From: an uncultured bacterium
GTDB lineage: Bacteria; Patescibacteriota; Minisyncoccia; Phycocordibacterales; Phycocordibacteraceae
Assembly (NCBI GenBank): GCA_903825105.1
Contig: CAIJZI010000008.1
Coordinates: forward strand, 8,401 to 72,400
Direction: 5' to 3'
DNA: 64,000 nt
This document shows positions 1,985 through 62,581 of the stretch, in pieces; within the stretch, counting starts at the first letter, position 1; the number at the start of each line of letters is the position of its first letter. The notes beneath the pieces were generated by a model that did not search any database, was not told the DNA's origin, and saw only the letters and a list, made by a program, of their open reading frames with translations. The position numbers were made by a program, and so were the translations under genes.

Positions 1985-2813
1985 TACTGGCGCTCGCTCG
2001 CAAACCAAAAAGAGAGCGCTCCGGCCGCTTGACCAATTCAACTCTCTTTTTGGCTTGCAAGCTTCGCGCCCAAAAAAGAGCTTGGGACAAAACTTTTTAA
2101 TGCACGCACGCATCGCGAATAGGATCGCCGGCGCGGCGGAGCTCGCGCCGGAGTCGGTGGTATTTGAAATTGGTCCTGGCACAGGAATGCTCACACACGA
2201 GCTTCTCAAAATGACAGGGAAAGTTATCGCTCTCGAAGCCGATCAAGAACTTTTTGAAAAATTAAAAATTGATTTTGATACTGAAATAAAAGAAGGGAAA
2301 CTCGAATTACTGCACGGCGACATTCGCACTTTTGAAATTTCGTCACTTCCAAAAAATTATAAACTGGTCGCGAATATTCCGTATTATCTGACCGGAGAAA
2401 TTTTTAGAATGTTTCTCGAGTCACAGAATCAACCAATCTCTATGACGCTTCTGGTACAAAAAGAAGTTGCAGAAAGAATCGCACGAAGCAAGAAGGAGTC
2501 CATTTTATCTATTTCAGTAAAAGCATTTGGAACGCCCAAATATGAATTCACCGTCCCGCGTGGCGCTTTCAGACCGGCGCCAAAAGTTGATTCAGCTGTG
2601 CTCACGATTTGTGACATCTCGCGTAAGAATTTTTCTTCAAAAAAAGATGAACAATTATTTTTTGAGCTCGTTCACGCAGGCTTCGCTCACAAAAGAAAAT
2701 TCGTATTAAAGAATTTAGTCGAGGCAGGATTCCAAATAGGGAATACGGGAGAAATAAAAGAAAAAGCTCGAGCTGAAGATCTCCAATTATCAGATTGGCT
2801 CGGGCTAATTTAA
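1953..2813 (+). CDS. rsmA: 16S rRNA (adenine1518/1519-N6)-dimethyltransferase KsgA/RsmA
   Basis: SLGQNFL...EIGPGTGMLT SAM-binding motifs and NIPY motif; N-terminal about 35 aa are atypical and overlap uvrD by 32 nt; an in-frame TTG at 2055 is an alternative start. Confidence 0.8.
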   Translation: MMKLMNQSSINTGARSQTKKRALRPLDQFNSLFGLQASRPKKSLGQNFLMHARIANRIAGAAELAPESVVFEIGPGTGMLTHELLKMTGKVIALEADQELFEKLKIDFDTEIKEGKLELLHGDIRTFEISSLPKNYKLVANIPYYLTGEIFRMFLESQNQPISMTLLVQKEVAERIARSKKESILSISVKAFGTPKYEFTVPRGAFRPAPKVDSAVLTICDISRKNFSSKKDEQLFFELVHAGFAHKRKFVLKNLVEAGFQIGNTGEIKEKARAEDLQLSDWLGLI

Positions 2814-3257
2814 AAAGACGATACGAAAGGCGTCATCAACCCATAAGAAGGTACCGGTGTACAAAAAGGCAACATAAGGCAAACGCCAAACACTGGGATT
2901 ATCCCCGGAATATATTTACCCATTATGTATGTTGCGGTCGGCACATTGTACATAGGGTAAAGTTGAGAATAGGGTCTGTATATTAATAACAAAGGCACGG
3001 ATGGCGGTATTGGCATTATGGTAAGTAACCAAGTCTGGCTACAAGTACAATATGTTGCGTTTGTTCTAATCCCTGAAAAAGGGATTCCTTTATCTAAATT
3101 TACAGCAAATGCTCTCGTGGGGAGTATTAGATTAGAAATTAAAAATATAATTAGTGTAAAAAACAGGAATCGAGTATGCATATTTATATAGTATCACCTG
3201 TTGGTGTAGATAACTGCCTCATTTACACTCATTACTGGTATACTTTATAGCGATACC

Positions 3258-4295
3258 ATGGGAAGAATTATAAAAAATTGGCCCATAACTATTGCAACGC
3301 TATTTTCGCTGTTTTTAATTGTCGGTGCCTTTATTCTCGCGCGCGACGCGATTTCGCCTTCAGTCGTTCAAGCATCGACAGAAACCGCTTTGTTGAAGGC
3401 AATAGCGACAAAAGATTCTACGGGTGACGGCTTGCCAGATTGGGAAAAGTCTTTGTATGGCATTCCGCTTAATGCGACAACTACCGATTATTTTAATCTT
3501 GGGATGACAGACGGCGAAGCTGTCGCGAGAGGGCTTATTGTCCCAAGGGCGATTGCTGATATTAAAGTCGCTGCCTCGCCAACAACCTCGTATGATTTAA
3601 ATGATGATTCTCTGCCACCAGCACCAGCTGATGATACGCTCACAGCCGCATTCGCGAAGAATTTTATGACGCTTTATCTTTCTGCAAAAGAACAGAATGG
3701 TGGAGCAGACCTTTCTGAAAGTGATATAGCCAATCTTTCAAAACAAGTGATGGATTCTCTCACTTCATCTATCTCTGTTGCCCCTGACTTTAAGTCAGCA
3801 AAAGATATAAAAGTTTCAGGGTCTGGTGCGGATGCGCTCAAAGCCTTTGCAGTAAGTGCAGAAGCTGTCTTCGCAGCTAATCAGAGTAGTGCCACGACAA
3901 GCGAATTATTCTATCTACAAAATGTGGTTCAAAATAACGATAATTCAGCCATTCCGTATCTCATTTCTCTCGCGAAATCTTATAGAAATAACGCAGTCGG
4001 GCTCTCGACACTGCTTGTGCCACAAGAGCTAGCTTCTGATGATCTCGCTATTGTGAATGCATTGATGCGAATAAGTGGAATCACGAGCGATTTTGCCCGC
4101 GTGAATGACGATCCTCTCGCGGCGATGCTCGCTCTTAATCAGTATCCAGGCGCAGTGTTAAATCTTAAAAATGCTTTTACAAATATAGGAAATATCTATA
4201 AAACAGCGGGTATTTCTCTTAAGGCGGGCACACCCGGCGCGTCATTTGTAAATGTGATTGGTAAAGTTAATGCAAAGCAGCAAGAAAAGATATGA
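3258..4295 (+). CDS. hypothetical signal-anchored extracytoplasmic protein (345 aa) with DSTGDGLPDWEK thrombospondin-type-3-like Ca-binding motif
   Basis: N-terminal TM helix WPITIATLFSLFLIVGAFILA, then Ala/Ser/Thr-rich extracellular region; first gene of an operon-like run with overlapping stop/start codons. Confidence 0.55.
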   Translation: MGRIIKNWPITIATLFSLFLIVGAFILARDAISPSVVQASTETALLKAIATKDSTGDGLPDWEKSLYGIPLNATTTDYFNLGMTDGEAVARGLIVPRAIADIKVAASPTTSYDLNDDSLPPAPADDTLTAAFAKNFMTLYLSAKEQNGGADLSESDIANLSKQVMDSLTSSISVAPDFKSAKDIKVSGSGADALKAFAVSAEAVFAANQSSATTSELFYLQNVVQNNDNSAIPYLISLAKSYRNNAVGLSTLLVPQELASDDLAIVNALMRISGITSDFARVNDDPLAAMLALNQYPGAVLNLKNAFTNIGNIYKTAGISLKAGTPGASFVNVIGKVNAKQQEKI

Positions 4296-6094
4296 AAAAA
4301 CAACTTAAAAGGGACATTTTGATAGCATCAACAGCGTTCACATTTTTTGTCGCGTCATCAGTATTTTTTATGTACCCACAAAAGGTTAGGGCGGGGGGAA
4401 TCCCTGTTTACGATCCTCTTAATCACATCGTAAATGTCATTACTTCTATCGCTGCGCCAATCACTTCAGCGTCTACACTGTTGTCCCAAATCAACTCCTA
4501 TGTTCTTCAGCCAATCGCGCTTACCTTGTCTGGGAATATATTGAAGTCGATGACGGCGAGCGCGACTTCATTTGTCAACGGGAAGAGTAATGGCACCGGT
4601 ATGCCGCAGTTTGTCACCAGTCTCCAAAACCAGTTACAGAAGACGGGAGATGTGCAGGCGCTTGCCTTCTTTTCGAATCTGAAAAATTCTAATTCACCAT
4701 TCGCGGCCTCAATCACCTCTTCTTTGAAAAATAAGTATCTCGAGAGTACCAGTCTTGCCGGGTTCTTCTCTGCGAATCAGTGCACGCTTTCTAAATCTTC
4801 TAAAAACATAAACTCTTTTCTCGCGGGTAATTGGTCTCAAGGAGGTGTCGGTGCGTGGCTCTCTCTCACGACACAAGATCAAAACAATCCCTACACGCTC
4901 TATGAAAAGGCACAGAACCAGCTCGCTTCTGTGGTAAACGCTGCACAAACAGAGAAGACCACACAGCTTAACTGGGGGCAGGGAATGCTCTCATGGTGTG
5001 GAAATGTATCGAGCTCGAGCTCTGGCTCTACGGGTGGTTCTGTGGATCCAACTTCAAGCACAGTAGACACACAAATAGACATGACTTGTTCTAATAACCA
5101 ACAGTGTCCAGGAGTTCTCGTGTGTATTTCTGGTAAATGTATAGACGATCCATTGACTACAACTTCAAGCACAATAGATACGCAAATAAACAATATAAGT
5201 ACAAAAAATCTAGATTTAAGCAATGTTAAAAACGACATCAATTCTGCTGCCTCCGCAAAATCCTTAAGCGCAGGGGACCCGTGTACCAAGAAAGATGGCT
5301 CCCCGGGCCAAATAAAAACGCCAGGCTCGGTTATTTCAGGCGCTCTTGGCAAAGCGCTCGGCGTCGAGCAGGATAAGCTCGCTCAACTAGGTAGTGCAGG
5401 CACAGAAATAAATAAACTTATGTCGAGTGTCGGGGATGTGCTGAAGTCGATGTCTATAATGACGAGTGTCGTCAACGGAGCTACTGGCGGGCTTCTTGGC
5501 GTTACCAATACCTCTGCTACCGACAGAACCTCTGAATTCTCGCAGTATGATTCAAGTGGATTCTTGGGCGCAACAGCCACCACATCAACAAAAAGTACTG
5601 ATAGCTTCGCTGTCTCTCCTTCTGTAATGACGAGTAACATCGCGCGGTATCAGGCGGCATGGAACACTATCAGCACAGCGGCGAACACTGCATCCACAAC
5701 AGTGGCGAGCCTTTTAAACACTTGTGCATCAAGCGCGAGCGAAGCACAGACCGCGCTCGATACAGAAATCGCTCCCGTTTTGAAACATGCTGCCCAAGCA
5801 ACGGTGAATATTTCACAAGCGAATGACCTACTACAGCAGATCCAAATTGATTTAGAAGACAATTCTTCTGGCACAGCATATACCAGTGATATGGTGACGC
5901 TTCAGACGACACCGCCGACGAGTGCGGATGTTTCGAATGCAGAACAAAATGCTCAAATTACAGAGTTCGCGACAACAGCAGACCCTAATTCGACCAATTC
6001 TCTCACTGTTTCTGGGGCGTCAATCCTCGACCAAATGATTCTTCTCACAACGAATGCCAACGCGCTCAAGGCCTCCTGCGGTTCTGGTATATGA
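4292..6094 (+). CDS. hypothetical secreted protein (600 aa); mature N-terminus GGIPVYDP (TrbJ/VirB5-like), two copies of a Cys-rich C-x6-C-x5-C-x3-C module, S/T-rich
   Basis: N-terminal TM/signal; IPVxD start followed by helical segments; TCSNNQQCPGVLVCISGKC module; start codon overlaps the upstream gene's stop. Confidence 0.6.
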   Translation: MKKQLKRDILIASTAFTFFVASSVFFMYPQKVRAGGIPVYDPLNHIVNVITSIAAPITSASTLLSQINSYVLQPIALTLSGNILKSMTASATSFVNGKSNGTGMPQFVTSLQNQLQKTGDVQALAFFSNLKNSNSPFAASITSSLKNKYLESTSLAGFFSANQCTLSKSSKNINSFLAGNWSQGGVGAWLSLTTQDQNNPYTLYEKAQNQLASVVNAAQTEKTTQLNWGQGMLSWCGNVSSSSSGSTGGSVDPTSSTVDTQIDMTCSNNQQCPGVLVCISGKCIDDPLTTTSSTIDTQINNISTKNLDLSNVKNDINSAASAKSLSAGDPCTKKDGSPGQIKTPGSVISGALGKALGVEQDKLAQLGSAGTEINKLMSSVGDVLKSMSIMTSVVNGATGGLLGVTNTSATDRTSEFSQYDSSGFLGATATTSTKSTDSFAVSPSVMTSNIARYQAAWNTISTAANTASTTVASLLNTCASSASEAQTALDTEIAPVLKHAAQATVNISQANDLLQQIQIDLEDNSSGTAYTSDMVTLQTTPPTSADVSNAEQNAQITEFATTADPNSTNSLTVSGASILDQMILLTTNANALKASCGSGI

Positions 6095-8829
6095 TTATGA
6101 AAAAAATTCTCACGCTTTCATTCTTCGCTCTCGCACTATCTATTTTTGTATTTACATCTGCTGGTCACGCTCCGAGCGTGCATGCGCAAGCTGTTTGCAA
6201 GATAAATGCAGATTGTGCTACAGACTTCGTCTGTGCTTCAGGTACTTGTGTCCCACTATCAACAACTTCATCAATAATAGATACACAAATAGATACAACT
6301 TGTGCGAATGACCAGCAGTGCCCCGCAGGTCTTGTTTGTACCTCAGGTAAATGTGTAGACTCTGGCACTGACTCTGGCACTGCCGCGGCTTCTGCGAAGC
6401 CTGCCAGCGATGCGGGCACGAAGAACCCGACAAGTAATTTGCCACAGCTGCAAGACACCAGCGGAGCTCTCGGCTCGGTGATGAAGTACATAATGACCAT
6501 ATTCGCGTGGCTTCTCGGTATCGCTGCGATCACGCTCGATAATGCGGTCTACTACACCGTCATCACGATGGGGAATTATGTAAGCAATTTAAATGCCATC
6601 GGAGTAACTTGGCGCATACTGCGAGACATTGGCAACATTGCCTTCATCTTTGGATTTTTGATGATCGGTATCAACATCATTTTAGGTACCAACTTATACG
6701 GATGGGGACAAAAATTGATCTCGACGCTTCTTATCTCAGCGATTTGTCTGAACTTCTCGCTCTTCGCGACAGAGGCGATTATCGATGTGGGGAACTTATT
6801 CGCGACACAATTTTATACACAAATAAACGGTGGAGTGCCGGCACAGTCGACAGATCTTTTAAGCGCGAGCAATATTAATAATGAAGTCATTTCGAATAAA
6901 ATATTGTCCCAATTAGGGCTCGCGACTATTTATGGCAGGGCACTCACCAATACTGATGGATTCTTAGCGAATTCCACCGCGACAACGCTTGTCAGCTTTA
7001 TGAGCATTATCTTATTCCTTATCGCGGCGTTCGTGATGTTCTCGCTCGCTTTTATCCTTATCGCGCGGTTCGTTATTCTTATTTTTGTCATTATAGTTTC
7101 TCCTATTGCTGTAGCAGGGTTCGCTATACCTCCACTCGCCAAGCTTAAAGACAGTTGGATGAGTGCTCTCCTTGGGGAGACAATGACTGCGCCAGTACTC
7201 CTATTATTGTTGTATGTCGCTCTGGCTATTATCACGGATGCAAAATTTCTCGCTTTTGGTTCAGACAAGGCGGATTGGCTAGGCTTTGTAGAAAGTAGCG
7301 GTGGGGCAATGAATCTGACCGGCATGGCGGGGCTTATTCTCTCATTTATTGTAGCGATGGGGCTCCTGCTCGCTGTGGTTATGTATTCTAAAAAGCTCGG
7401 CGCCTTCGGCGCGAGCTGGGCATCGAAAACAGCGGGGAAGTTAACCTTCGGCGCGACCGCCTGGGGGATGCGACAAACAGCCGGAAGAGCATCACAACGA
7501 TTGTCGAATTATACTCGTGCGAATTTTGGAGGCAGTGTTCTCGGGAGAATTACTGCTGGTGGTTTCGACAAGGTCGCGGCGGGGAGTTTCGATGTACGCG
7601 GGTCGAATGCGTGGATTTCTGGGACGAAGGCTCTTGGCGGCGTTGAGGCTGGGGAAGCACAGAAGGGTGGCTTTAAAGCAATGCGGGATAATACAGTTAA
7701 GGAACACGAAGCATATCTTAAGACGGTCACTTCAGCGATTGAAGATAAGAATCTTAAAAAGACAACGGCAGCTGCGCAGGCACGAGATGTTGCTGAGGCA
7801 GCAGCAGCAAAAGAATTCAAAGAAGTAGAAGAACCGATAAAAGATATTAATAAAAAGATTACCGCAAACAATGAAGAGATTGGGAAATTAGAGAAAGCAG
7901 AAAAAGGTCTAGCCCCTCTCGTCGAAACGCAAAAGAAGGCAAGTGAAAGTTTCCAAAAAGCTGACGCAAAATTTGTACAAGCAACAGCAGAAAAAGAACA
8001 AAAAGAAAAAGAACAAGCAACGGCGCAAGAACAAAAAGCTGCTATTGAGGCTGAGCAAAATACGGCAGAAACAGAAGTCGAGAAGAAAAAGGCAGAAGTC
8101 GCGAGCTTGTTAGAAGCCAAAGAACGAGAAGAAAAATTCTCTCCAAACGGCAGAATGACCGAAGAAACTGAAAAGAATCTCGCGATTGCCCAGCAGAATC
8201 TCGCGGCTTCTCAAGCAGCTCTCACTGAAGCGGATGGTCGCCTAGAAAAAGCAGCAAAAGAGCTTGATGAAAAGGAAAAGGCTACAACAATAGCGGCTGG
8301 TAATCATAAAACAGCAAGAGAAACCAGAGAATCCGCTGGAGAAAGCCTTCGTGGAGTCACGGAAAAAGTTTCGAAAGAAGAGGAAAAACATAAACTCGGG
8401 ACACTCGACCAAGTTACTGGAAAATTAGCTACTTCTAAGGAAGATCTCGAAGCAAATAAAGGCGAATTACAAAAGAAGTCGAAGACACTCAATGAATTAA
8501 AAGGAAAGCTCAAAGATGCTGTCGACGCAGAAAAGAAACTGAGCGGCGAAATATCGGAAAAGCAAAAAAAGGCACAAGAAGGATATGCCAGCAGTATTTC
8601 TGGAGTCATGGGTCTCGCGTATGGTCCTGGAGGCGGCATTGCTGCTAAGAAGATAATTAAAGGAGCGATTAAAAAAGATAATAGTCTTGATAAGATTAAG
8701 AAGTTATTGGGAGAAAAAAGCGAAGATGATATGCTCGCTGATGCATACAAAGCGCAGTTAAAAAAACAAGTTGAAGAAGAAGCTGAAAAGACAGCAAAAT
8801 CAGCAGAACCGGCCGCACCAACTGCTTAG
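6091..8829 (+). CDS. large polytopic membrane protein (912 aa) with N-terminal Cys-rich module, at least 6 TM helices and a 450-aa KEKE-rich cytoplasmic coiled-coil tail; VirB6/TrbL-like architecture
   Basis: Signal peptide; TCANDQQCPAGLVCTSGKC module homologous to the upstream gene's; hydrophobic block about aa 130-430; long E/K-rich coiled coil. Confidence 0.65.
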   Translation: MIMKKILTLSFFALALSIFVFTSAGHAPSVHAQAVCKINADCATDFVCASGTCVPLSTTSSIIDTQIDTTCANDQQCPAGLVCTSGKCVDSGTDSGTAAASAKPASDAGTKNPTSNLPQLQDTSGALGSVMKYIMTIFAWLLGIAAITLDNAVYYTVITMGNYVSNLNAIGVTWRILRDIGNIAFIFGFLMIGINIILGTNLYGWGQKLISTLLISAICLNFSLFATEAIIDVGNLFATQFYTQINGGVPAQSTDLLSASNINNEVISNKILSQLGLATIYGRALTNTDGFLANSTATTLVSFMSIILFLIAAFVMFSLAFILIARFVILIFVIIVSPIAVAGFAIPPLAKLKDSWMSALLGETMTAPVLLLLLYVALAIITDAKFLAFGSDKADWLGFVESSGGAMNLTGMAGLILSFIVAMGLLLAVVMYSKKLGAFGASWASKTAGKLTFGATAWGMRQTAGRASQRLSNYTRANFGGSVLGRITAGGFDKVAAGSFDVRGSNAWISGTKALGGVEAGEAQKGGFKAMRDNTVKEHEAYLKTVTSAIEDKNLKKTTAAAQARDVAEAAAAKEFKEVEEPIKDINKKITANNEEIGKLEKAEKGLAPLVETQKKASESFQKADAKFVQATAEKEQKEKEQATAQEQKAAIEAEQNTAETEVEKKKAEVASLLEAKEREEKFSPNGRMTEETEKNLAIAQQNLAASQAALTEADGRLEKAAKELDEKEKATTIAAGNHKTARETRESAGESLRGVTEKVSKEEEKHKLGTLDQVTGKLATSKEDLEANKGELQKKSKTLNELKGKLKDAVDAEKKLSGEISEKQKKAQEGYASSISGVMGLAYGPGGGIAAKKIIKGAIKKDNSLDKIKKLLGEKSEDDMLADAYKAQLKKQVEEEAEKTAKSAEPAAPTA

Positions 8830-8862
8830 GCGACGCCGCCAGCACCATAAAATTTAATCACT

Positions 8863-9624
8863 ATGGACACACAAGAACCAACACTCGATGAAAGTATCCA
8901 GCAGGTGATGCAGACCTTGCCGCCCGTGATTCGTGATTATCTTTCAGCAGGGAAGTACACAGAGGTTGCGAAAGGTTTAATCACGAAATATGGGCTCCAT
9001 GTCGATCAGGGAGGCATTCTCGAACGCGAGATAATGTTGCTTTTGATGGGTATCGAGAACCCAACAGAATTTATAAATGCGCTTATTGAAGAGGCGAAGC
9101 TCGATGCGAAGGTTGTAGAGAACATTGTGAAGGATGTGAATGACCAAATCTTCGCTCCACTTAAAGAAGCAGAGATGAAGAGCGACACTACCGAGCCAGA
9201 GCCAAGTCATTTTCATTTAGAAAATAAAATTCCTCATCCAGTTCCTGCGCCAGTGAGAAATGAGATTCACCACCCGCCACTCGGGCCCGCGGCAGCCGTC
9301 ACGGCGCCAGCTCCTGCCATTACTCCTGTTGAAGCGCCCAAACTCTTGGCGGAGGAGAAGCTGCTTGAAGACCATGAAGAGCCGCATCTAGATGTAAGGG
9401 ATAAGGTGCAAGCCCCGACGCAAGAAGTCGTGGCCCCGACCGGGAGCGTCGGGGGTATAAACTTAATACCCTTTCCGCCGAAAAAGATTGTGCCACCACC
9501 CCATCCTTTGCCAGAGGCTACGGAGGGCACAGCAGAAAAACCAATTTCTCCGACTCCACCTAAAGTCCCGCCACCTCCAGTCAAACCGTATTCAGTTGAT
9601 CCTTATCGCGAACCGATCGAATAA
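8863..9624 (+). CDS. hypothetical protein with globular N-domain and proline-rich C-terminal half
   Basis: ORF with in-phase codon usage; PxP-rich low-complexity C-terminus; last gene of the envelope cluster. Confidence 0.5.
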   Translation: MDTQEPTLDESIQQVMQTLPPVIRDYLSAGKYTEVAKGLITKYGLHVDQGGILEREIMLLLMGIENPTEFINALIEEAKLDAKVVENIVKDVNDQIFAPLKEAEMKSDTTEPEPSHFHLENKIPHPVPAPVRNEIHHPPLGPAAAVTAPAPAITPVEAPKLLAEEKLLEDHEEPHLDVRDKVQAPTQEVVAPTGSVGGINLIPFPPKKIVPPPHPLPEATEGTAEKPISPTPPKVPPPPVKPYSVDPYREPIE

Positions 9625-10624: not shown

Positions 10625-10685
10625 TTTGCGAAGCAAATTACCCTGAGCGTAGTCGAAAGGTTGGTTTTTGTGCTATATTTTTTAT

Positions 10686-10997
10686 ATGAAATATCGCAAC
10701 ACACTCCAGAAAGGTTCAGTACGCAACATAATCTTTCGCCAAGGGAAGGTGTGGTTTGGGGTGGCTCTAGAATTTAACATTGTTGAAACAGGGGATGACG
10801 CACAAGAAGTAATGATTCTTCTTGAAGAGGCGGTGCGCGGCTATCTCGCCTCAGCTCGTAAAGGTAAATTGAACGCAGCTGTTCTCAATCAGAAATCAGA
10901 ACCAGAATATGAAAATCTATGGCTTGGGAAAAATAATCCAAAGTTGATCCCGTCTCCCATTCAGATACACACTTTTAGCGAACGAACCTTTGCATAA
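10686..10997 (+). CDS. hicB: HicB-family antitoxin-like protein (N-terminal HicB fold only)
   Basis: About 100-aa protein immediately upstream of a clear HicA; AT-rich relative to flanks; HicB-like beta-alpha pattern (VALEFNIVETGDDAQEVMILLEEAVRGYL). Confidence 0.5.
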   Translation: MKYRNTLQKGSVRNIIFRQGKVWFGVALEFNIVETGDDAQEVMILLEEAVRGYLASARKGKLNAAVLNQKSEPEYENLWLGKNNPKLIPSPIQIHTFSERTFA

Positions 10998-11002
10998 TTT
11001 CT

Positions 11003-11239
11003 ATGCCGCGCGGGCTCAATAACTGGTCTTTTAGGGACATAAAACATTTTCTAGAACAACACAATTTTCATTTGAATCACATCGAAGGTAGTCATTATTT
11101 TTACACCGGTTCCTACAGAGGAGTCGTCCGCCAAGTTTCAATCCCATTTCACGGGTCAAAAACGATTCATCCTAAGACGATGAAAAGTATTGTGCGCCAG
11201 TCCGGCGTCCCGCAAGAAGAGTGGATGAAATATAAATAA
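11003..11239 (+). CDS. hicA: HicA-family mRNA interferase toxin (YcfA-like)
   Basis: 78 aa with GSH motif and HGSKTIHPKTMKSIVRQSGV C-terminus typical of HicA; 6 nt after the hicB stop. Confidence 0.7.
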   Translation: MPRGLNNWSFRDIKHFLEQHNFHLNHIEGSHYFYTGSYRGVVRQVSIPFHGSKTIHPKTMKSIVRQSGVPQEEWMKYK

Positions 11240-11311
11240 CAATAAACTGCGATTGACACTTTGTGTCAGGGGGGGGGGTAGGATTAAGGGTGTTATTAAT
11301 CCAAAAAATAT

Positions 11312-11854
11312 ATGAGCATAGAAAATCCCGAAAAATATACTCCAAGCGATGAAGAAATTAAAAAAGCAGGAGAAAATATGACAGATGCGCAAGCATATAT
11401 ATCAAACAAAAGAGAAGAGAGCGTCAAAAAATTAAAAGAAATTGGTGTAGATGGTTATTTAGAGAGACTCAGTGACGGGAAGATAAGCGGTAAAATTAAT
11501 GGTCATAAAATTGAGATTGTCCAAACTGGCGATAGCCATATGTTTCCTCATTATGAGGTTTTTGTTGATGATAATTTTAAATTAACAGAAGGCGAAGCTC
11601 ATCGCTTCGCACATAAATACCTTGGTTATAATTCTGAAAATGTCGCTGGCTACATAAAGTCTGAACGAAAGACCGTAATGATAAATTATAAAAAACTCGA
11701 TGGCACCTTAGGAAGGTATAGTGATACTACACATAAAAATATCGACATGCTCAAAGAAGCAGAGAAATTAACAAGAACAGAAGAGGGACAAAGACAAATT
11801 GAAGAACAAATTCAAGCAAAGGGAGAAAAAATGCTGAAAGAAATAGGTTTGTAA
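11312..11854 (+). CDS. hypothetical protein (180 aa), strongly AT-rich, horizontally acquired
   Basis: Long ORF with about 35% GC versus about 53% in flanking genes; preceded by a G10 tract and palindromes. Confidence 0.55.
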   Translation: MSIENPEKYTPSDEEIKKAGENMTDAQAYISNKREESVKKLKEIGVDGYLERLSDGKISGKINGHKIEIVQTGDSHMFPHYEVFVDDNFKLTEGEAHRFAHKYLGYNSENVAGYIKSERKTVMINYKKLDGTLGRYSDTTHKNIDMLKEAEKLTRTEEGQRQIEEQIQAKGEKMLKEIGL

Positions 11855-11925
11855 TTCAAAAGTTGACTCCTTTGCGCTTTAACCTTATATTTCTCTGCGG
11901 GTTGTACAAATTCAAAAACAAAAAA

Positions 11926-12126
11926 ATGAAAGGGGAAATAGAGTTGCCACCGTCTATTCAAGAAATAAACAGTGACGAAAAGTGTCGTTACTGTAATCTG
12001 CCAAGGGGATTGCACGGCATTTATGCCAGGCTTTTCAAGCGTCGGGGCGAGCTCGACCACCAAGGGCATCATGGCGACGACGAAGAGCCCGAATGCTCCG
12101 GCTTCGAGTCGGCGTCGATAACTTAA
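11926..12126 (+). CDS. possible small Cys/His-rich protein (66 aa from MKGEI...)
   Basis: CRYC...HQGHHG...C motif; followed by a plus-oriented terminator; competes with an antisense ORF, so low confidence. Confidence 0.25.
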   Translation: MKGEIELPPSIQEINSDEKCRYCNLPRGLHGIYARLFKRRGELDHQGHHGDDEEPECSGFESASIT

Positions 12127-12143
12127 ACCCAATCAACCCAACA

Positions 12144-12180
12144 GAGGTGGGACCCTACAGTCCCGCCTCTTTGCTTTTTC
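12144..12180 (+). terminator. intrinsic terminator (GAGGTGGGAC...GTCCCGCCTC + U-run)
   Basis: 10-bp stem with one G-U pair, followed by TTTGCTTTTT. Confidence 0.7.
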
Positions 12181-12240
12181 ACCATTTTCAGCTATTGTAC
12201 TTATAACGCCTCGGCGTCTTTTTATTTCCTACTATTATTT

Positions 12241-14388
12241 ATGAACCGCGACTATCCACTAGAAAAAGTGCGCAACTTCGGCATCATCGCTCACATCGAC
12301 GCGGGCAAGACGACTGTGTCTGAGCGCATCCTCTTTTATACCGGCAGTCAGCACAAGATCGGCGAGGTGCACGAGGGCGAGACCACGACCGACTGGATGG
12401 AACAGGAGCGCGAGCGCGGCATCACTATTACCTCGGCTGCTATCACTTGTTTCTGGAGCCGAACGAGCGAGAAAGATAAAAAGGATGTTTCGAAGAAAAC
12501 GCGTTTCAATATTATCGACACTCCGGGGCACATCGACTTTACCGCCGAGGTGCAGCGTTCTATGCGTGTGCTCGACGGCGCGATAGTCGTCTTCGACGGC
12601 GTGTCTGGGGTAGAACCACAGTCAGAGACCAACTGGCGCTATGCCGACGACGCGAGTGTCCCGCGCATCTGTTTCATCAATAAGCTTGATCGCATCGGCG
12701 CTTCGTTCGAGCGTTCCTATGCGAGCATTCTCGACCGGCTTTCACCAAAGGCGATTCGTATGCAGATTCCTATCGGAGAAGAATCTCTCCATGAAGGCTC
12801 GATCGATCTCCTCACGATGAAAGGGTACAATTTCGTCGGCAATATGGGCGAAGAAGTTGTTGAAATCCCTGTCCCAGAGAGCCTTCTCGAAGAGGCGAAG
12901 AAATATCGTTCAGAACTTATCGAGCGCATCGTTGAACAGGATGACGCGGCGATGAATGCATATCTCGAAGGGAAGGAACCGTCGCTTGAAGAATTAAAAG
13001 CAATTTTGCACAAGGCAGTTGTCGCGAATCAGATTTTCCCTGTCTACTGTGGCAGCGCGCTTCATAATAAAGGTGTTCAGCTCGTACTCGACGCCGTTGT
13101 CGATTATCTTCCTTCACCGAAGGAGTTGAAGCCAGTTACTGGCATTAATCCTAAGACTGGTGGACCTGTCGAGCGCCATGCCGCTGACGATGAGCCATTT
13201 TGTGCGCTCGCCTTTAAGCTTCAGACCGACCCGTTCGTTGGTGCATTAACCTTCTTCCGTGTGTATTCAGGAACGCTCTCTGCTGGCTCGTATGTCTATA
13301 ACTCGACCACAGGTTCAAAGGAGCGCGTGGGCCGTATCGTGCGTCTTCAGGCAGACAAAAGAGAAGAAGTGGCACAAGTTTTCACAGGAGAAATCGCTGC
13401 TGCTGTCGGTTTGAAAGATACGAAGACTTCGCACACGCTCTGTGACGAAGCGAATCCGATTATTCTCGAACAGATTAAATTCCCTGAACCAGTGGTGTCG
13501 CTTCGCATCGAACCGAAGACCAAGGCTGACCAAGAAAAAATGGGTGTCGCTCTGCGTAAGCTCTCTGACGAAGACCCGACCTTCCGCGTCTCGGGCGATG
13601 AAGAGACGGGCGAGACGATTATTTCTGGTATGGGTGAACTTCACCTCGAAATTCTCGTTGACCGAATGAAGCGTGAATTTAGCGTGATCGCTGATGTGGG
13701 GAAGCCGCAGGTGGCGTATCGCGAAACGATTCTCGGCGCTGCTGATGCTGAAGGGAAGTATATTAAGCAGACCGGTGGTCGCGGCCAGTATGGCCATGTG
13801 AAAATTAAATTGAAAAAGCTCGAACCGCTCGAAGAGGGTGCGAAGATCTCGAAGAATATCACGCGCGAAGACCACTTCGAATTCATCAACAACATCAAGG
13901 GGGGTGTCGTGCCACAAGAATATATCCCAGCGGTGGAGAAGGGCGTTCGCGAAGCGATGGCGAGAGGATTCCTCGCAGGCTTCCCGATGGTGGATGTGTC
14001 AGTCGACCTCTACGACGGTTCGTATCACGATGTCGACTCTTCAGAAATCGCTTTCAAAATCGCGGCATCAATGGCCTTTCAAGATGCAGCAGGGAAGGCG
14101 AAGGCAGTTATTCTCGAGCCGATTATGCGCGTGGAAGTCATTGTCCCAGATAAGTTTATGGGCGACATCACTGGCAACTTGTCAGGAAAGCGCGGGCAGA
14201 TCGAAGGCACCGAAGAGCGTGGAATGAATAAGGCGGTGCATGCGAAAGTGCCGCTCTCTGAAATGTTCGGTTATACCACAACGCTGCGCTCAATGACTGA
14301 AGGCCGCGGCAATATGACGATGGAGTTCGACCACTACGGCGTCGTGCCAAACAACATCGCGACGGACATTATTGCAAGTCGGAAGTAA
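12241..14388 (+). CDS. fusA: elongation factor G
   Basis: [17 protein letters not shown] and NKLDR GTPase motifs; 715 aa. Confidence 0.98.
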
Positions 14389-14509
14389 TAAACATCTTGC
14401 ATTTATATGTACCATTGCGTATAGTTGTTAGAACGCATTGAGGCGTAACTCGACTGGTGTTTTGTCGAGGATTTATTCGTGATTTTATTAATTTAAATTA
14501 CCAGATACT

Positions 14510-15709
14510 ATGGCAGAATTTAATCGTTCGAAGCCGCACATGAATGTCGGCACCATCGGTCACGTTGACCACGGGAAGACGACGCTTACCGCGTCTATTC
14601 TCCACATCCTCTCGATGATGACAGCGCAGGGCTACAGCGCACGCGTCGAAGGAGTTGACAATATCGACAGCGCCCCAGAAGAGAAGGCACGCGGGATCAC
14701 TATCGCTCTCCACCACTCGGAGTACGAGACCCCGAATCGTCACTACGCACACATCGACGCCCCAGGGCACGCTGACTACATCAAGAACATGATTACTGGT
14801 GCTGCCCAGATGGACGGCGCAGTACTCGTGGTCGCAGCGACTGACGGTGTGATGCCTCAGACACGCGAGCACATCCTTCTCGCGAAGCAGGTGGGTCTTA
14901 AGAAGCTCATCGTATTCATCAACAAGGTGGATATGGTCGCAGAAGCAGATCTTGTTGACCTCGTTGAAGAAGAAATTCGCGAATTGCTCACCAAACAGGG
15001 CTACGATGGTACAAACACGCCGATTATCCGCGGCTCAGGCCTCAAGGCCCTTGACGCTAAGAGCGTTGATGAAGAGTACGCAGTGAAGGTGAAGGAACTC
15101 GTCGACACAATGGACACCTACTTCGATCTCCCAGAGCGCGAAATCAGCAAGCCATTCCTTATGCCGATTGAAGACATCTTCTCGATCGAAGGTCGTGGCA
15201 CAGTGGTCACTGGCCGTATCGAGCGCGGTGTTATCAAGGTTGGTGAGGAAGTTGAAATTGTTGGTATCAAGCCAACAGCTAAGACGACCGTCACCGGTAT
15301 TGAAATGTTCAACAAGCAGCTCCAAGAGGGAACAGCAGGCGACAATGCCGGCATTCTTCTCCGCGGAACGAAGAAGGAGGATGTGCACCGTGGCCAGGTT
15401 CTCGCGAAGACTGGCTCGGTCACTCCACACACCGACTTCGAAGCAGAGGTGTATGTTCTTGGAAAGGATGAAGGAGGCCGTCACACGCCATTCTTCTCTG
15501 GCTACAAGCCACAGTTCTATATCCGAACCACAGATGTTACGGGCGAAGTAACGCTCGCAGATGGAAAGGAAATGGTGATGCCAGGCGATACAACAACCTT
15601 CAAGGTTAAACTTGTTGCCCCAGTCGCTCTCGAAGCAGAACAGCACTTCGCTATTCGCGAAGGAGGTAAGACCGTCGGCGCTGGCGTCGTGACGAAGATC
15701 ACTGCGTAG
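14510..15709 (+). CDS. tuf: elongation factor Tu
   Basis: [21 protein letters not shown]; 399 aa; own promoter TTGCAT-N17-TATAGT at about 14399-14428. Confidence 0.98.
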
Positions 15710-15793
15710 ATAAAAGATGTAAGGTTCAAGGTATAAGCAAAATTCAAAAAATAATTACTTAAACCTTAAATCTTATCCCTTACACCTACTCTC

Positions 15794-16201
15794 ATGCCTA
15801 CAGCTAAGACTACAAAGCCAATAGCGAAGAAAGCAAAAGCAGCTCCTAAAAAAGTTGCTGCGAAGAAAACCGCACCAGTAGCTGTCGCTCCAGCCGAGCA
15901 CAAGCTGCGCATCCGCGTCTGTGCCTACGAGCACAAGATTCTTGATCTCTCGGTGAAGCAGATTATGGACACCGCCGCCCGCTTTGATGCGGTCGTCGTT
16001 GGCCCAGTCCCGCTCCCGACTGAGATTAAGCGTTGGACAGTGAACCGTTCTACCTTCGTCCACAAGGACGCTCGCGAACAGTTCGAGATGCGCATCCACA
16101 AACGCCTCATAGATATTCTCAATCCTCTCCCGAAGGTGATCGAGGCCCTCACGAACCTCAATCTCCCAAGCGGAGTCACGATAGATGTGAAGATGGTTTA
16201 G
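15794..16201 (+). CDS. rpsJ: 30S ribosomal protein S10 with 30-aa Lys/Ala-rich N-terminal extension
   Basis: Core RIRVCAYEHKILD...THKDAREQFEMRIHKRLIDI matches S10; extra basic N-tail. Confidence 0.93.
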   Translation: MPTAKTTKPIAKKAKAAPKKVAAKKTAPVAVAPAEHKLRIRVCAYEHKILDLSVKQIMDTAARFDAVVVGPVPLPTEIKRWTVNRSTFVHKDAREQFEMRIHKRLIDILNPLPKVIEALTNLNLPSGVTIDVKMV

Positions 16202-55111: not shown

Positions 55112-56755
55112 ATGGATGAGAATAAGTTGAGAGAAATTATAAGGTGTGCTCGCGAGAATGAGAATGTCGAGTTTAAGTCTGCATCAGACAGTTTTTCTGT
55201 CCTCGGAGGCGAAAGAGAGAATAAGAAATCTTTGTATGGATATTGTACAGCTATTGGTAACGAGGGAGGTGGGCGTATTGTTTTTGGAGTGACTGATGAA
55301 CGAGAGATTGTCGGAACGAAAGCTTTTCAAAATATTGAAGAGATCAGGTCTCAGATATACGAAAAAATGGGTGTTAAAATCGGTATTCAAGAATTTTTAC
55401 TACCGCAACGAGTTGTGGTTATTGATGTACCGGGACGGCAAATTGGTAAAATATTTACATTCCATAATCGGTATCTCACACGAGTTGGCGAAGAACTTGT
55501 AGAAATGAAACAGGATGAGATAGCTAAGATTCTTGCGGAGACGCAAGAGGATTTTTCAGCAAAATATTTGGATTTTGGATTAGAAGTGTTGGATCCGCAA
55601 GCTATAAAGAAAATGCGCGAATTATATGAGAAGAAGGCGTTAAGCACCACGAATGCTTCTAAAGCATCACTGACAGATGTTCAGTTTCTTTCCGATCTCG
55701 GGCTACTAAAGAACAATAAGATTAACAACTCAGCTTTGTTATTGCTTGGGACCACCGAATCATTACGTGATTTGCTTCCCGATGCAGAGATAATTTTTGA
55801 ATACAGAGTAAATCAAAATGATACACATTATTCCGACAGGTTGAATCTTCGCCAATCCCTAGTGTTTTCTTTGGATATTTTATGGGACAAAATAAATTCC
55901 CGTAACTTCGTGTCTCAATTACGTGAGCGCCTAATGCGGCGAGACATTCAGGCGTTTAACGAAGATGTAGTTCGTGAAGCCATGAATAATGCTGTGGTGC
56001 ATAGAGATTACCAAGCGCATAAATCAATATTCGTGCGCCAAGATAATACAAAGATAGTCTTCGAAAACCCGGGAGGTTTTATGCCAGGAATTACGCCGGA
56101 AAATATCTACAATCAAACTGCCTATAGAAATAGGCGACTGGCTGAATCGTTTGAAAAAATTGGTCTAGTTGAACGGTCTGGGCAGGGTGCGAATCTTATC
56201 TTCGAGAAGAATATTCGTGAAGGTAAAGGCATCCCAAAATATGAGACCACACAATATGATGTGTCGCTGTCTTTGTCAGCCCTTATTAAAGATGAAGAAA
56301 TCATTACCTATTTGGACGAGATAATTCAAAGCAAACAACTGGCTTTAACTGTTGATGACTTGGTGATTCTTGAAAAGATAAAGGATAGAACGTCCAAAGG
56401 GATAATGAAGAGAGATGTACAGAAATTTATTGATGCAGGGGTTGTTGTGTCCGACGGTGTTGGTAGGGGAGTGAAGTATTTTCTATCGAAGCAGTATTAT
56501 AAAGATCATGACAGACTTGGTGAATACACGAAGATTAAGGGACTGAGTCGGGCCGGTATCAAAGAACTAATTCTTGAACACCTTAATGCCAATAAGAAAG
56601 TAACCGCAAAGGAATGTCAGCAAATATCGCCAAACTTGAGCCCGAAAGACGTCGATAATATTTTACAAGAATTACGCAGAGATGAAAAAATCAAATTCAT
56701 TACATTTTCAGGAAACAAGAAGAATGGGCATTGGATTCTAATAGGTGAAAACTAG
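55112..56755 (+). CDS. Schlafen/AlbA_2 domain + HATPase_c_4 (RecG-C-like) putative ATP-dependent DNA-binding regulator or defence-type protein
   Basis: N-terminal YGYCTAIGNEGGGRIVFGV (AlbA_2-like); central NAVVHRDYQAHKSIFVRQDNTKIVFENPGG (HATPase_c_4 hallmark); AT-rich versus neighbours. Confidence 0.7.
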   Translation: MDENKLREIIRCARENENVEFKSASDSFSVLGGERENKKSLYGYCTAIGNEGGGRIVFGVTDEREIVGTKAFQNIEEIRSQIYEKMGVKIGIQEFLLPQRVVVIDVPGRQIGKIFTFHNRYLTRVGEELVEMKQDEIAKILAETQEDFSAKYLDFGLEVLDPQAIKKMRELYEKKALSTTNASKASLTDVQFLSDLGLLKNNKINNSALLLLGTTESLRDLLPDAEIIFEYRVNQNDTHYSDRLNLRQSLVFSLDILWDKINSRNFVSQLRERLMRRDIQAFNEDVVREAMNNAVVHRDYQAHKSIFVRQDNTKIVFENPGGFMPGITPENIYNQTAYRNRRLAESFEKIGLVERSGQGANLIFEKNIREGKGIPKYETTQYDVSLSLSALIKDEEIITYLDEIIQSKQLALTVDDLVILEKIKDRTSKGIMKRDVQKFIDAGVVVSDGVGRGVKYFLSKQYYKDHDRLGEYTKIKGLSRAGIKELILEHLNANKKVTAKECQQISPNLSPKDVDNILQELRRDEKIKFITFSGNKKNGHWILIGEN

Positions 56756-56889: not shown

Positions 56890-56981
56890 TGGCGGAGGGG
56901 GAGGGATTCGAACCCTCGATACGGTATTACCCGTATAGCGAGTTAGCAACCCGCCGCACTAGGCCTCTATGCGACCCCTCC
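56890..56981 (-). tRNA. tRNA-Ser (anticodon GCU), class II long variable arm, CCA encoded
   Basis: Hand-folded from the sequence: acceptor GGAGGGG/CCCCTCC, anticodon stem GCGGG/CTCGC, loop TTGCTAA, variable arm ATACGG/CCGTAT, T-arm GAGGG-TTCGAAT-CCCTC, discriminator G + CCA. Confidence 0.85.
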
Positions 56982-57721: not shown

Positions 57722-58807
57722 ATGTCCTTCCTCGGAACTATCTTTGGCGACAAAAAAGAAAAGAGCGTTCTCGGTATCGATATAGGCTCCTCATCTTTGA
57801 AGGTTGTGCAGCTGCGTAAAGAGCATGGTCAGGCAGTTCTCGAGACTTATGGCGAATTGTCGCTCGGGCCCTATGGCGGAGAAGAAGTGGGGCAGGCGAC
57901 GAATCTTTCCCCAGAACAAATTTCAGAAACATTAAAAGATCTTTTGCGCGAAGCGAAGGTGACGACCAAGAGTTGTGGCGTCTCGATACCGTTTACCCGT
58001 TCTCTGCTTACCCTCGCCACACTGCCGTATCGTGAAGATAAAAAAGAACAAAAGACTATTATAGAACTTGAAGCTAGAAAATATATACCGGTACCCGTGA
58101 GTGAAGTCCAGCTCGATTGGTTTGTAGTGCCTGACACAACGCACGCTTCTCCCGAGGACAATTCTGGAAAAAATAAAAAGATAGAAGTGCTTCTGGTCGC
58201 GGTTCATAATGATGAGCTCGCCATACTTCAAAATATCGTCGCAGGGGCTGGCCTTCAGGCGAGCTTTTATGAGATTGAGATATTTAGCACCATACGCGCA
58301 GTCGATGACGAGCCGATGAAGCCGGTGATGATTCTCGATGTGGGCGCCGCATCGACCAAGACCTATGTTATCGAACACGGTGTTGTCGCTTTTTCACATT
58401 CGATAAGTATCGGAAGCCAAGAGATTACTCGTGCGATCGCGATTTCTGGGAATGTGCCGATCGCGCAGGCAGAAATGTTAAAGAAGGAAGCAGGGATCGA
58501 AGGCGACGGGGCGCTTGGCTCTCCAGAATTTGTTTTCTCGCGCATTTTTGCTGAAGCGCGTCGCGTGCTCGTTCAATATGAGACAGCACATAAGAAATCA
58601 ATCACGGCGATTATATTAACGGGCGGTGGCGGCGTTACCAAAGAGCTTGGCGCGTATGCAAAAAACATTTTCTCGATAGATGTGCATGTCGCGAATCCAT
58701 TTGCGAAGACAAAAGCGCCGGCATTTATGAAATCAGTTCTCGAAAGTATCGGCCCCGAATTCGCCGTCGCTGTCGGCCTCGCTCTGCGAAAACTTGATGA
58801 GATATAA
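57722..58807 (+). CDS. pilM: type IV pilus assembly protein PilM (actin-like ATPase)
   Basis: LGIDIGSSSLKVVQL; 361 aa. Confidence 0.85.
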   Translation: MSFLGTIFGDKKEKSVLGIDIGSSSLKVVQLRKEHGQAVLETYGELSLGPYGGEEVGQATNLSPEQISETLKDLLREAKVTTKSCGVSIPFTRSLLTLATLPYREDKKEQKTIIELEARKYIPVPVSEVQLDWFVVPDTTHASPEDNSGKNKKIEVLLVAVHNDELAILQNIVAGAGLQASFYEIEIFSTIRAVDDEPMKPVMILDVGAASTKTYVIEHGVVAFSHSISIGSQEITRAIAISGNVPIAQAEMLKKEAGIEGDGALGSPEFVFSRIFAEARRVLVQYETAHKKSITAIILTGGGGVTKELGAYAKNIFSIDVHVANPFAKTKAPAFMKSVLESIGPEFAVAVGLALRKLDEI

Positions 58808-58820
58808 AAGTGGATAAAGT

Positions 58821-59447
58821 TTGTATGCGAATAGGGCAGTGCTCGTTATACTAAATCAAATGGACCTTCCTCCGACAATCCCTACATCGTTTGTGCCCAA
58901 CCAAGGAACTGCTGTGTCGCGTGTGCAGGAACAGAAATCGACTATTTCTGGGGCTTTAAGCTTCATCGCATATATTATTTTTGTTGCTGTTTTTGCCGCC
59001 GCGGTAGGAGTATTTTTCTATGGGCAATTTCTCAACAATCAAAAAACTGCGAAAAATACAGAGCTGCAAAATGCTGAAGCAAAGATCGATTCTGCGACCG
59101 CTGATAGTTTTATAAGATTGCGAGATCGTATCGCTTCAAGTAGAACGCTACTTGCGAACCATATTGCTTTTTCTAAGTTCTTCTCGCTTCTCGGGTCTCT
59201 TATGCCGACCAGTGTCCACTTCACACAATTGCATCTTTCTGTTAACAACGACGGCACGGCAAGTGTAGATGGAATTGGCGTAGCAAAAAATTTCAACGCG
59301 CTTGCATTTACTTCAACAACATTTGCTAAAGACGGTCGCATAAAAGATGCCATTTTCTCAAATATCGCGGTGTCTCCAAGAGATGGCTCGGTATCTTTTT
59401 CTCTCTCAGCCAAACTGGATTCTAAGACGATCACCTTTTCACCATGA
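58821..59447 (+). CDS. putative PilN-like bitopic membrane protein
   Basis: Single TM after a short cytoplasmic N-terminus; position after pilM; weak similarity only. Confidence 0.45.
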   Translation: MYANRAVLVILNQMDLPPTIPTSFVPNQGTAVSRVQEQKSTISGALSFIAYIIFVAVFAAAVGVFFYGQFLNNQKTAKNTELQNAEAKIDSATADSFIRLRDRIASSRTLLANHIAFSKFFSLLGSLMPTSVHFTQLHLSVNNDGTASVDGIGVAKNFNALAFTSTTFAKDGRIKDAIFSNIAVSPRDGSVSFSLSAKLDSKTITFSP

Positions 59448-60001
59448 ACAGCAACAATATTCTTTCGACGCTCGCATTTTTAGTAGCCATAGGCATATTC
59501 TTTGCGTATGTTAATCCGACATGGTCTGGATCGATTGCAGAAGCTCGTGCCACAATTGATTCTGATAATCAGGCACTCACAGCAGCAGGCGAATATACTG
59601 CACAACAAAATGAGCTTACTTCTGCGCGCAATGCGATTGACCCAGCTAATCTAACAAGGCTCGCAACTTTTCTGCCAGATGCGGTTGATAATGTGGGACT
59701 CATTCTTGATTTGAATTCTCTCGCTGCACGCAGCGGGCTTTCGCTTTCGAATATTGATGTGGCCGCGAACGATTCTGCATCATCCGGTTCTTCGAATGGG
59801 TCTGTGCCGGCAATGGCAAATCCGGTGAGTTCTGCAGACTTATCGCTTTCTGCGGTCGGAACATATACAGCTCTGCAAAACTTCTTGGCAGGAGTTGAAA
59901 AGAGCGGTCGATTGCTCGATGCCAGAGATATAGTAATAACTGGCTCAGATACTGGGGTTTATACATATAAAATGAAATTACGCCTGTATTGGCTCCACTA
60001 A
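59444..60001 (+). CDS. putative PilO-like bitopic membrane protein
   Basis: TM + coiled-coil + C-terminal domain; gene order. Confidence 0.45.
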   Translation: MNSNNILSTLAFLVAIGIFFAYVNPTWSGSIAEARATIDSDNQALTAAGEYTAQQNELTSARNAIDPANLTRLATFLPDAVDNVGLILDLNSLAARSGLSLSNIDVAANDSASSGSSNGSVPAMANPVSSADLSLSAVGTYTALQNFLAGVEKSGRLLDARDIVITGSDTGVYTYKMKLRLYWLH

Positions 60002-60004
60002 CAT

Positions 60005-60367
60005 ATGAAATCTAATGCTGTCATTGTCATTATTGCGGTTCTCGCCATCTCTGCTGGCGCGTATTGGTATTTTTTCACTGGCACTGGCAATCAACAGCCA
60101 CTGACCGGGGTTGGTACATCTATAAATATCGCGCAAGCACAATTCCAAACACTTCTCGGCGAACTTCAGCCAATTTCTTTTGATCCAAGCATTTTTTCTG
60201 ATGCGCGATTTAATGTTCTAACAGATCTTACAACAACAGTTTCTCCAGAAACAACAGGTCGACTCGATCCTTTTTCAATCGCTTCTAATCCAAGTCAAGG
60301 TTCTTCCGGTTCTGTTTCTACCGCGAGCTCCACAGCGAGCTCAACCACAAAAGTAATTAAAAAGTAA
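60005..60367 (+). CDS. small membrane-anchored S/T-rich protein (PilP-like position)
   Basis: N-terminal TM; operon position only. Confidence 0.35.
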   Translation: MKSNAVIVIIAVLAISAGAYWYFFTGTGNQQPLTGVGTSINIAQAQFQTLLGELQPISFDPSIFSDARFNVLTDLTTTVSPETTGRLDPFSIASNPSQGSSGSVSTASSTASSTTKVIKK

Positions 60368-62154: not shown

Positions 62155-62176
62155 TTATTTATAGTATAATAAAACT

Positions 62177-62578: not shown

Positions 62579-62581
62579 TGT

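Follow-up and report, generated by a model that had tools for sequence, protein, structure and literature searches.

A VirB6-like gene and three conserved partners between rsmA and rpsL: a probable detached module of a chromosomal type IV secretion system in Patescibacteria

A cluster of four genes lies between rsmA and the str operon in the 64-kb stretch of contig CAIJZI010000008.1 analyzed here (the window), which comes from an uncultured member of the Patescibacteriota. We propose that the cluster supplies the membrane and surface part, with VirB6, of a type IV secretion system (T4SS) that is chromosomally encoded in Patescibacteria and related to MPF_FATA, and we put the probability of this assignment at roughly 80%. 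In this lineage a rearrangement parted the VirB6 half of the T4SS from its ATPase half. Chromosomal T4SSs of Patescibacteria are known; what is added here is the split arrangement and three unannotated partner families. The four open reading frames of the cluster are as follows.

Gene 1: 3258-4295, plus strand, 345 residues, first gene of the module
Gene 2: 4292-6094, plus strand, 600 residues
Gene 3: 6091-8829, plus strand, 912 residues
Gene 4: 8863-9624, plus strand, 253 residues

Genes 1 and 2 and genes 2 and 3 overlap by ATGA at both junctions, and in the public gene call, where gene 3 starts two codons downstream (910 residues), it still abuts gene 2. Within the window, uvrD and rsmA lie upstream of the cluster and rpsL, rpsG, and fusA downstream. 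An earlier reading of this DNA made from the letters alone (the sequence-only reading) had described four abutting plus-strand genes between rsmA and the str operon, and both coordinates and overlaps agree with it. Scans for promoters and terminators gave nothing above shuffled expectation, and Pfam and NCBIfam scans of five window proteins directly matched no T4SS family.

Relatives of the cluster (Kaiserbacteria/Paceibacteria) comprise 82 loci, namely two long contigs (L001 and L002) and 80 loci from a scan of one genome per species, to which tblastn with the window proteins was applied. The order uvrD-rsmA-(g0)-g1-g2-g3-g4-rpsL-rpsG-fusA is found in both long contigs and is the same in essentially all 80 further species. 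Gene 2 was detected in 77 of the 82 loci and genes 1 and 4 in 71 each, with the misses of these three genes falling mostly at contig ends. Of 72 loci, 58 keep the 4-nucleotide overlap of genes 1 and 2, and in 76 of 78 the distance between genes 2 and 3 is no more than 7 nucleotides. In light of the kept gene order and tight spacing, we conclude that the cluster belongs to the core genome of the clade as a fixed, operon-like unit and is not a mobile element. Absence from close relatives, or loss of linkage there, had been named in the sequence-only reading as evidence that would speak against that reading; the cluster proved strictly conserved. Homologues of gene 3 number 549 at E ≤ 1e-3 and, where named, belong to Kaiserbacteria, Paceibacterota, or Patescibacteria.

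The ATPase half of the system was sought with a hidden Markov model (HMM) built from three proteobacterial VirB4 proteins and run against all open reading frames of the loci and the window. Among the loci, matches occurred only in L075, L076, and L078 (E from 1e-16 to 1e-19). In these three, gene 4 is directly followed by a PrgI/VirB3 gene (PF12666, E = 2.5e-11), a TrsD-like gene, and virB4 (PF19044, E = 6.6e-27), and beyond virB4 come two genes, a VirB2-like pilin gene (T4SS_pilin, PF18895, E = 7.4e-8, at L075 17635-18615), one further gene, and yidC. The same pilin family is found in L087 and L089, which represent the motor blocks of two relatives whose cluster is arranged as in the window. 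One of these is the complete, 993-kb chromosome OY969413.1, with the cluster (L067) at 694.8-716.1 kb and the motor block (L087) at about 773-780 kb beside yidC-rnpA-dnaA-dnaN. The other is JBAYHD010000001.1, where the cluster falls in the range 52.5-73.9 kb (L024) and the motor block in the range 102-124 kb (L089). Cluster and motor block are roughly 40-60 kb apart on the same replicon in both. The L087 block reads, in order, PrgI, a TraC-like/TrsD protein, VirB4, a 300-residue product, a 338-residue product, the pilin, and a 398-residue product. Judged by hydropathy, the motor block of the split relatives contains no protein with the size or transmembrane (TM) segment count of VirB6, so that gene 3 is the only VirB6-like gene at either locus. 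Between species of this clade, VirB4 sequences share 86-94% identity; they are annotated as TraC, DUF87, or VirB4-like.

Published data point in the same direction. In the survey by Quinonero-Coronel et al. 2025 (PMC12102498), Table S1 records VirB4 in 5 of 6 cluster-bearing genomes; the five positives are four of the five genomes with the window's arrangement together with the contiguous L078. That survey gives a Paceibacteria example with the order VirB6 (531), VirB3 (533), TrsD (534), and VirB4 (535), and the published order, VirB6 - x - VirB3 - TrsD - VirB4, agrees with gene 3 - gene 4 - PrgI - TrsD - VirB4 here. It also reports KsgA (= RsmA) as common near virB4 in Paceibacteria.

The VirB6 assignment concerns gene 3, whose product has three parts.

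Cysteine-rich ectodomain of gene 3: about 6196-6357, plus strand, after the signal peptide
VirB6-like core of gene 3 with seven TM segments: about 6463-7395, plus strand, seven hydropathy peaks over residues 126-430
Cytoplasmic coiled-coil tail of gene 3: about 7396-8826, plus strand, about 480 residues, charged

The seven hydropathy peaks exceed the at least five hydrophobic helices expected of a TrbL/VirB6 protein, and the AlphaFold2 (AF2) model is all-helical. The model, which covers residues 95-540 and was built from 36 sequences, has a predicted local distance difference test score (pLDDT) of 70.5. Foldseek returned as its top Protein Data Bank (PDB) matches two chains of the R388 stalk, 8rt9_F and 8rtd_L, at a probability of 0.99 (8rt9_F: E = 0.043 over 300 columns); from their length (about 260-270 modelled residues) we judge these chains to be TrwI/VirB6. 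Legionella DotA (PDB 9NGY) was also among the top matches. At the profile level, PF04610 (TrbL) matches 8 of 22 gene 3 orthologues at E ≤ 1. The orthologue P0067 reaches 24.8 bits (cut-off, 25.9) over profile positions 24-214 of 215, and with TrbL_4 (PF19597; cut-off, 27) the L078 orthologue scores 29.0 bits, over the cut-off, and P0103 scores 26.6. The sequence-only reading had described gene 3 as a VirB6/TrbL-like protein with at least six TM segments and a coiled-coil tail, and had named fewer than four TM segments as evidence to the contrary; the seven peaks and the fold matches to the R388 stalk bear the description out. The charged, coiled-coil tail attracts SMC-like noise matches, and when the full-length gene 3 alignment was searched as a profile against PDB sequences, the result was likewise coiled-coil noise only. 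No match to the gene 3 core was found by tblastn in 72,556 plasmids. A review (PMC12857230) describes an 'extended VirB6' class, with which the cysteine-rich ectodomain and the tail of about 480 residues of gene 3 agree.

Several observations weigh against this assignment. The Foldseek E-values for gene 3, between 0.04 and 0.6, are weak taken alone, and the window's own gene 3 gives no Pfam TrbL match. An hhalign comparison of the gene 3 core with three proteobacterial proteins (TrwI, VirB6, and TrbL) was not significant, with a thin, three-sequence reference profile. One cluster-bearing metagenome-assembled genome is scored VirB4-negative in PMC12102498; it is a scaffold-level draft and may be incomplete. 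Finally, since the window spans 64 kb, a VirB4 block in the window's own organism is inferred from its relatives. Because the hhalign comparison was not significant, the case for VirB6 rests on fold, topology, borderline profile matches, and genomic context; on these grounds we conclude that gene 3 has the fold and topology of VirB6.

Genes 1 and 4 flank the pair formed by genes 2 and 3. Hydropathy gives the gene 1 product a single hydrophobic segment, residues 10-28, as an N-terminal membrane anchor, which makes it bitopic, and its extracytoplasmic domain opens with a bacterial TSP3 repeat of the calcium-binding type. TSP3_bac (PF18884) matches 22 of 29 gene 1 orthologues (best E, 1.9e-7). 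The window's copy gives no match to this family at E ≤ 1; it carries the TSP3 motif DSTGDGLPDWEK, of which D53, D57, G58, L59, D61, and W62 are invariant (alignment A4). The signal anchor and TSP3-like motif read from the sequence alone are thus borne out. Searches of gene 1 found no PDB sequence relative and no further family match. The gene 4 product is proline-rich, as had been read from its sequence. It has no TM segment and consists of a conserved N-terminal domain of about 100 residues, a proline-rich linker, and a conserved C-terminal PYxxDPYREPI in which D246, P247, Y248, and E250 are invariant (alignment A5). Its family was not recognizable in Pfam or the PDB. In every case the neighbor of gene 4 on one side is the VirB6-like gene and on the other rpsL or, in L075, L076, and L078, PrgI.

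Gene 2 encodes a mostly helical protein with a predicted Sec-type signal peptide, cleavage of which would expose GGIPVYDP. The family has four conserved cysteines, of which C236, C331, and C478 are invariant (alignment A2), a hypervariable and often cysteine-rich insert, and a confidently modelled C-terminal helical bundle. It is also large, with 2,877 representative clusters at E ≤ 1e-3 in a profile search of 1.84 billion representatives; the matches listed by that search were close relatives. The AF2 model of gene 2 has an overall pLDDT of 60.7 and reaches about 90 only for residues 440-600. A repeat search revealed that the window's gene 2 shares a cysteine-knot module with gene 3.

Cysteine-knot module in gene 2: 5039-5146, plus strand, DNA 77% identical to 6253-6360
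Second copy of the module, in the extracellular N terminus of gene 3: 6253-6360, plus strand

Both copies, of about 100 nucleotides, encode TSSxIDTQIDxTCxNxQQCPxxLVCxSGKCxD and have weak DUF7107/EB matches. Among 35 aligned gene 2 proteins the insert occurs in the window's copy only, and the neighboring genes 2 and 3 seem to have recently exchanged a surface module. A cell wall hydrolase (VirB1-like) role for gene 2 was considered and set aside, as no hydrolase domain was found.

The sequence-only reading had described gene 2 as VirB5/TrbJ-like. Its signal peptide, its GGIPVYDP start, and its position stand; Pfam, profile, PDB, and fold searches gave the family assignment no backing. A true, highly diverged, and enlarged VirB5/TrbJ homologue, forming with gene 3 a VirB5-VirB6 stalk as in R388, seems doubtful to us. 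In favor of homology, gene 2 is directly followed by the VirB6-like gene, as is expected of a VirB5 gene, and is translationally coupled to it, and R388 TrwJ/VirB5 reads ...MAQ-GIPVFD at the equivalent place. Many orthologues start with (I/V)(P/V)(V/F)xD..N, IPVxD, VFDPTNY, or AV(V/L)D..N. With the N-terminal DUF4141 profile (cut-off, 30), orthologue P0179 scores 29.4 bits and the L075 orthologue 19.2, both below threshold and comparable to the 18.2 bits of genuine Agrobacterium VirB5, and the system includes VirB2-like pilins. Against homology, the motif is not found in all orthologues, does not keep a fixed register among family members, and cannot be fully separated from the signal peptide, and gene 2 is two to three times the size of VirB5. 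PF07996 (VirB5/TrbJ) matches neither gene 2 nor any of 35 orthologues even at E ≤ 10, whereas the control TrwJ scores 122.9 bits. An hhalign comparison of the N-terminal half with TrwJ, VirB5, and TrbJ, again with a thin three-sequence reference profile, gave P = 0.23-0.59, and a PDB sequence-profile search was empty. In a Foldseek search of the PDB, for which the query was the poor model confident only at residues 440-600, the best E-value was 0.73 and no VirB5 chain was among the 50 best matches listed. Furthermore, VirB5 is unreported in monoderm-type T4SSs (PMC12857230). A precedent exists in F-plasmid TraH, a cryptic VirB5 that binds the extended VirB6 TraG and is reported as a VirB5 homologue missed by sequence and structure comparison (bioRxiv 10.64898/2026.07.31.741991). 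In light of this precedent, the negative searches leave room for a VirB5-like role of gene 2, yet they give family membership no support. By its N-terminal motif, signal peptide, and position, we therefore treat gene 2 as no firmer than a tentative candidate for a VirB5 analogue.

Two further explanations concern the system as a whole. One, close to the sequence-only reading, is that the cluster is a self-contained VirB5/VirB6 module for contact or secretion that works without a T4SS motor. Consistent with it, the 64-kb window contains no VirB4 or VirD4 HMM match at E < 1 and no homologue of PrgI, TrsD, VirB4, or the pilin; in 79 of the 82 relatives no such ATPase gene lies within 10 kb of the cluster, whose neighbors are housekeeping genes; and the one draft genome noted above has no recorded VirB4. 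Against it stand the three relatives in which the cluster is contiguous with PrgI-TrsD-VirB4-pilin, the two relatives of the window's arrangement with an ATPase block on the same replicon that has no VirB6-like gene of its own, and the five VirB4-positive genomes of the survey. The appearance of a minimal, ATPase-less module is an effect of the limits of the window, because relatives carry the motor block elsewhere on the replicon, and we regard a motorless module as highly improbable. The other explanation, that the whole system including the module is a machine for DNA or nutrient uptake (ComB-like import) and not an exporter, is rather unlikely in our view but far less so. According to PMC12102498, most Patescibacteria T4SSs have no relaxase or coupling protein, and T4SS loci co-localize with competence genes in the class ABY1. 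The origin-proximal ATPase blocks of L087 and L089 each include a ComEC-type competence gene, about 3.5 kb upstream of PrgI.

ComEC-type gene (PF03772) of L087: 4012-5511
ComEC-type gene (PF03772) of L089: 5137-6624

On the other hand, Southlakia epibionticum is viable without ComEC whereas its T4SS is essential (review PMC12857230), and the content of the window has no bearing on the direction of transport. In the loci examined, no relaxase or coupling-protein gene was seen near either module, in the absence of a systematic search for relaxases or integrases.

For the T4SS module proposed here, we envisage the following mechanism. The VirB6-like gene 3 protein would form the membrane platform or channel, on which the distantly encoded PrgI/TrsD/VirB4 motor would dock, probably via the long tail, the gene 4 product, or both, and on which the VirB2-like pilins would be assembled. 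The gene 2 product, exported by Sec and probably disulfide bonded, would cap VirB6 on its outer side or form a tip there, a role like that of VirB5. Gene 1 may anchor or scaffold the assembly in the wall, and gene 4 may act as a cytoplasmic adaptor. A VirB8-like (NTF2-like) role was also considered for gene 1. A more specific version, which we offer as speculation, is that gene 2 is the absent VirB5-type cap or tip of the Patescibacteria T4SS, its N-terminal segment docking on a pentameric extended VirB6 (gene 3) and nucleating a VirB2-like pilus. By analogy with S. epibionticum, the machine probably serves host-cell interaction and not conjugation; the T4SS of that species is described in PMC10633639 as essential for epibiotic growth and as lacking both relaxase and coupling protein. 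Between species, identity is about 35-55% for genes 2 and 3 and 86-94% for VirB4 (L075, L078, L087, L089, and the window). Judged by these sequence identities, the envelope module evolves much faster than the motor, a pattern expected of host-facing parts.

As seen in the relatives, the system shares a clade-specific VirB4, PrgI/VirB3, TrsD, and a VirB2-like pilin with the Patescibacteria T4SSs described by Quinonero-Coronel et al. 2025 and by Wang et al. 2023 (PMC10633639; S. epibionticum SEML1_0006-0019). Like them it is chromosomal, near the origin and ksgA, with the order VirB6 - x - VirB3 - TrsD - VirB4. Unlike them, it has its VirB6 gene, along with genes 1, 2, and 4, in a separate block between rsmA and rpsL. 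Genes 1, 2, and 4 are not named as components in the accessible parts of these two papers, and the VirB6 of the window is below Pfam detection. Compared with the TrwI/VirB6 and TrwJ/VirB5 stalk of R388 (PDB 7O3V/8RT9), the host here is a monoderm without an outer membrane core complex, gene 3 adds a cysteine-rich ectodomain and a cytoplasmic tail of about 480 residues, and gene 2, at 600 residues, has no detectable VirB5 fold or profile similarity.

F-plasmid TraG/TraH likewise combine a large VirB6 with a long C-terminal extension and a larger signal-peptide partner that searches do not link to VirB5. Unlike here, the TraG extension is reported to be disordered and the F-type system is diderm, and neither protein has a sequence relationship to genes 2 or 3. 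Legionella DotA, the Dot/Icm protochannel, comes from a diderm pathogen with a type IVB system and differs in domain composition and in its partners (IcmX). Rickettsiales T4SSs resemble the present system in that their genes are dispersed in separate chromosomal islands and their VirB6 has large hydrophilic extensions; they differ as diderm P-type systems with several VirB6 paralogues, whereas here a single VirB6-like gene and two islands are found.

Between rsmA and gene 1, the sequence-only reading had noted a noncoding gap of 440 bp. The gap measures 444 bp and is not noncoding, as it holds an open reading frame with homologues. At the other, motor end of the system, the block of L087 encodes four proteins beyond VirB4.

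Minus-strand open reading frame: 2810-3181, minus strand, 123 residues, signal peptide and a cysteine- and proline-rich hydrophobic body, inside the 444-bp gap before gene 1
Further proteins of the L087 block: 11814-15809, a 300-residue protein with 3-4 hydrophobic segments and a proline-rich tail, a secreted 338-residue protein, a 293-residue pilin with a long cysteine-rich C-terminal extension, and a membrane-anchored 398-residue protein

The minus-strand product shares 38% identity with the C-terminal part of a 329-residue L002 protein encoded in the same place, which has a faint PG_binding_1 match, and homologues at the same place and on the same strand occur in 13 of the 82 loci. The 300-, 338-, and 398-residue proteins of the L087 block are uncharacterized, unlike the pilin.

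Elsewhere in the window, we observed a type IV pilus locus, a toxin gene, and a Schlafen/AlbA_2 gene.

PilM: 57722-58807, type IV pilus locus
PilB-type ATPase with MshEN domain: 60367-62154, T2SSE family PF00437, type IV pilus locus
PilT-type ATPase: 62582-63640, T2SSE family PF00437, type IV pilus locus
HicA toxin gene: 11003-11239, PF07927, E = 2.4e-11, in the rpsG-fusA insertion
Schlafen/AlbA_2 protein with HATPase_c_4 domain: 55112-56755, 547 residues, adjoining tRNA-Ser at 56890-56981

The type IV pilus locus (57722-63640) lies 50 kb from the cluster, and its PilB- and PilT-type proteins qualify the claim of the sequence-only reading that the window has no ATPases, which holds for VirB4 and VirD4. 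The HicA gene is part of about 1.6 kb of inserted DNA separating rpsG from fusA (10668-11854), where many relatives have only about 0.5 kb; a 109-residue upstream open reading frame, possibly the antitoxin, and a 180-residue open reading frame are found in the same insertion. The Schlafen/AlbA_2 gene may be a remnant of a defense system or mobile element.

Of the Patescibacteria, a single species is genetically tractable, and it cannot grow epibiotically without its T4SS; the composition of the Patescibacteria system is only partly known. Our analysis reveals no new kind of machine. It indicates that Kaiserbacteria-type genomes keep the VirB6 gene together with three conserved partners between rsmA and rpsL, far from virB4. 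Since published surveys scan about 20 genes around virB4, detached blocks of this kind can be missed. The families of genes 1, 2, and 4 can now be counted among the candidate components of the T4SS; one of them may be a VirB5 equivalent, whose presence would make sense of the VirB2-like pilins. If the proposed role of gene 2 as a cap is correct, the cluster would represent the first monoderm example of a VirB5/VirB6/VirB2 stalk-and-pilus architecture, and the fast-evolving, cysteine-knot-decorated surface of gene 2 would set host specificity.

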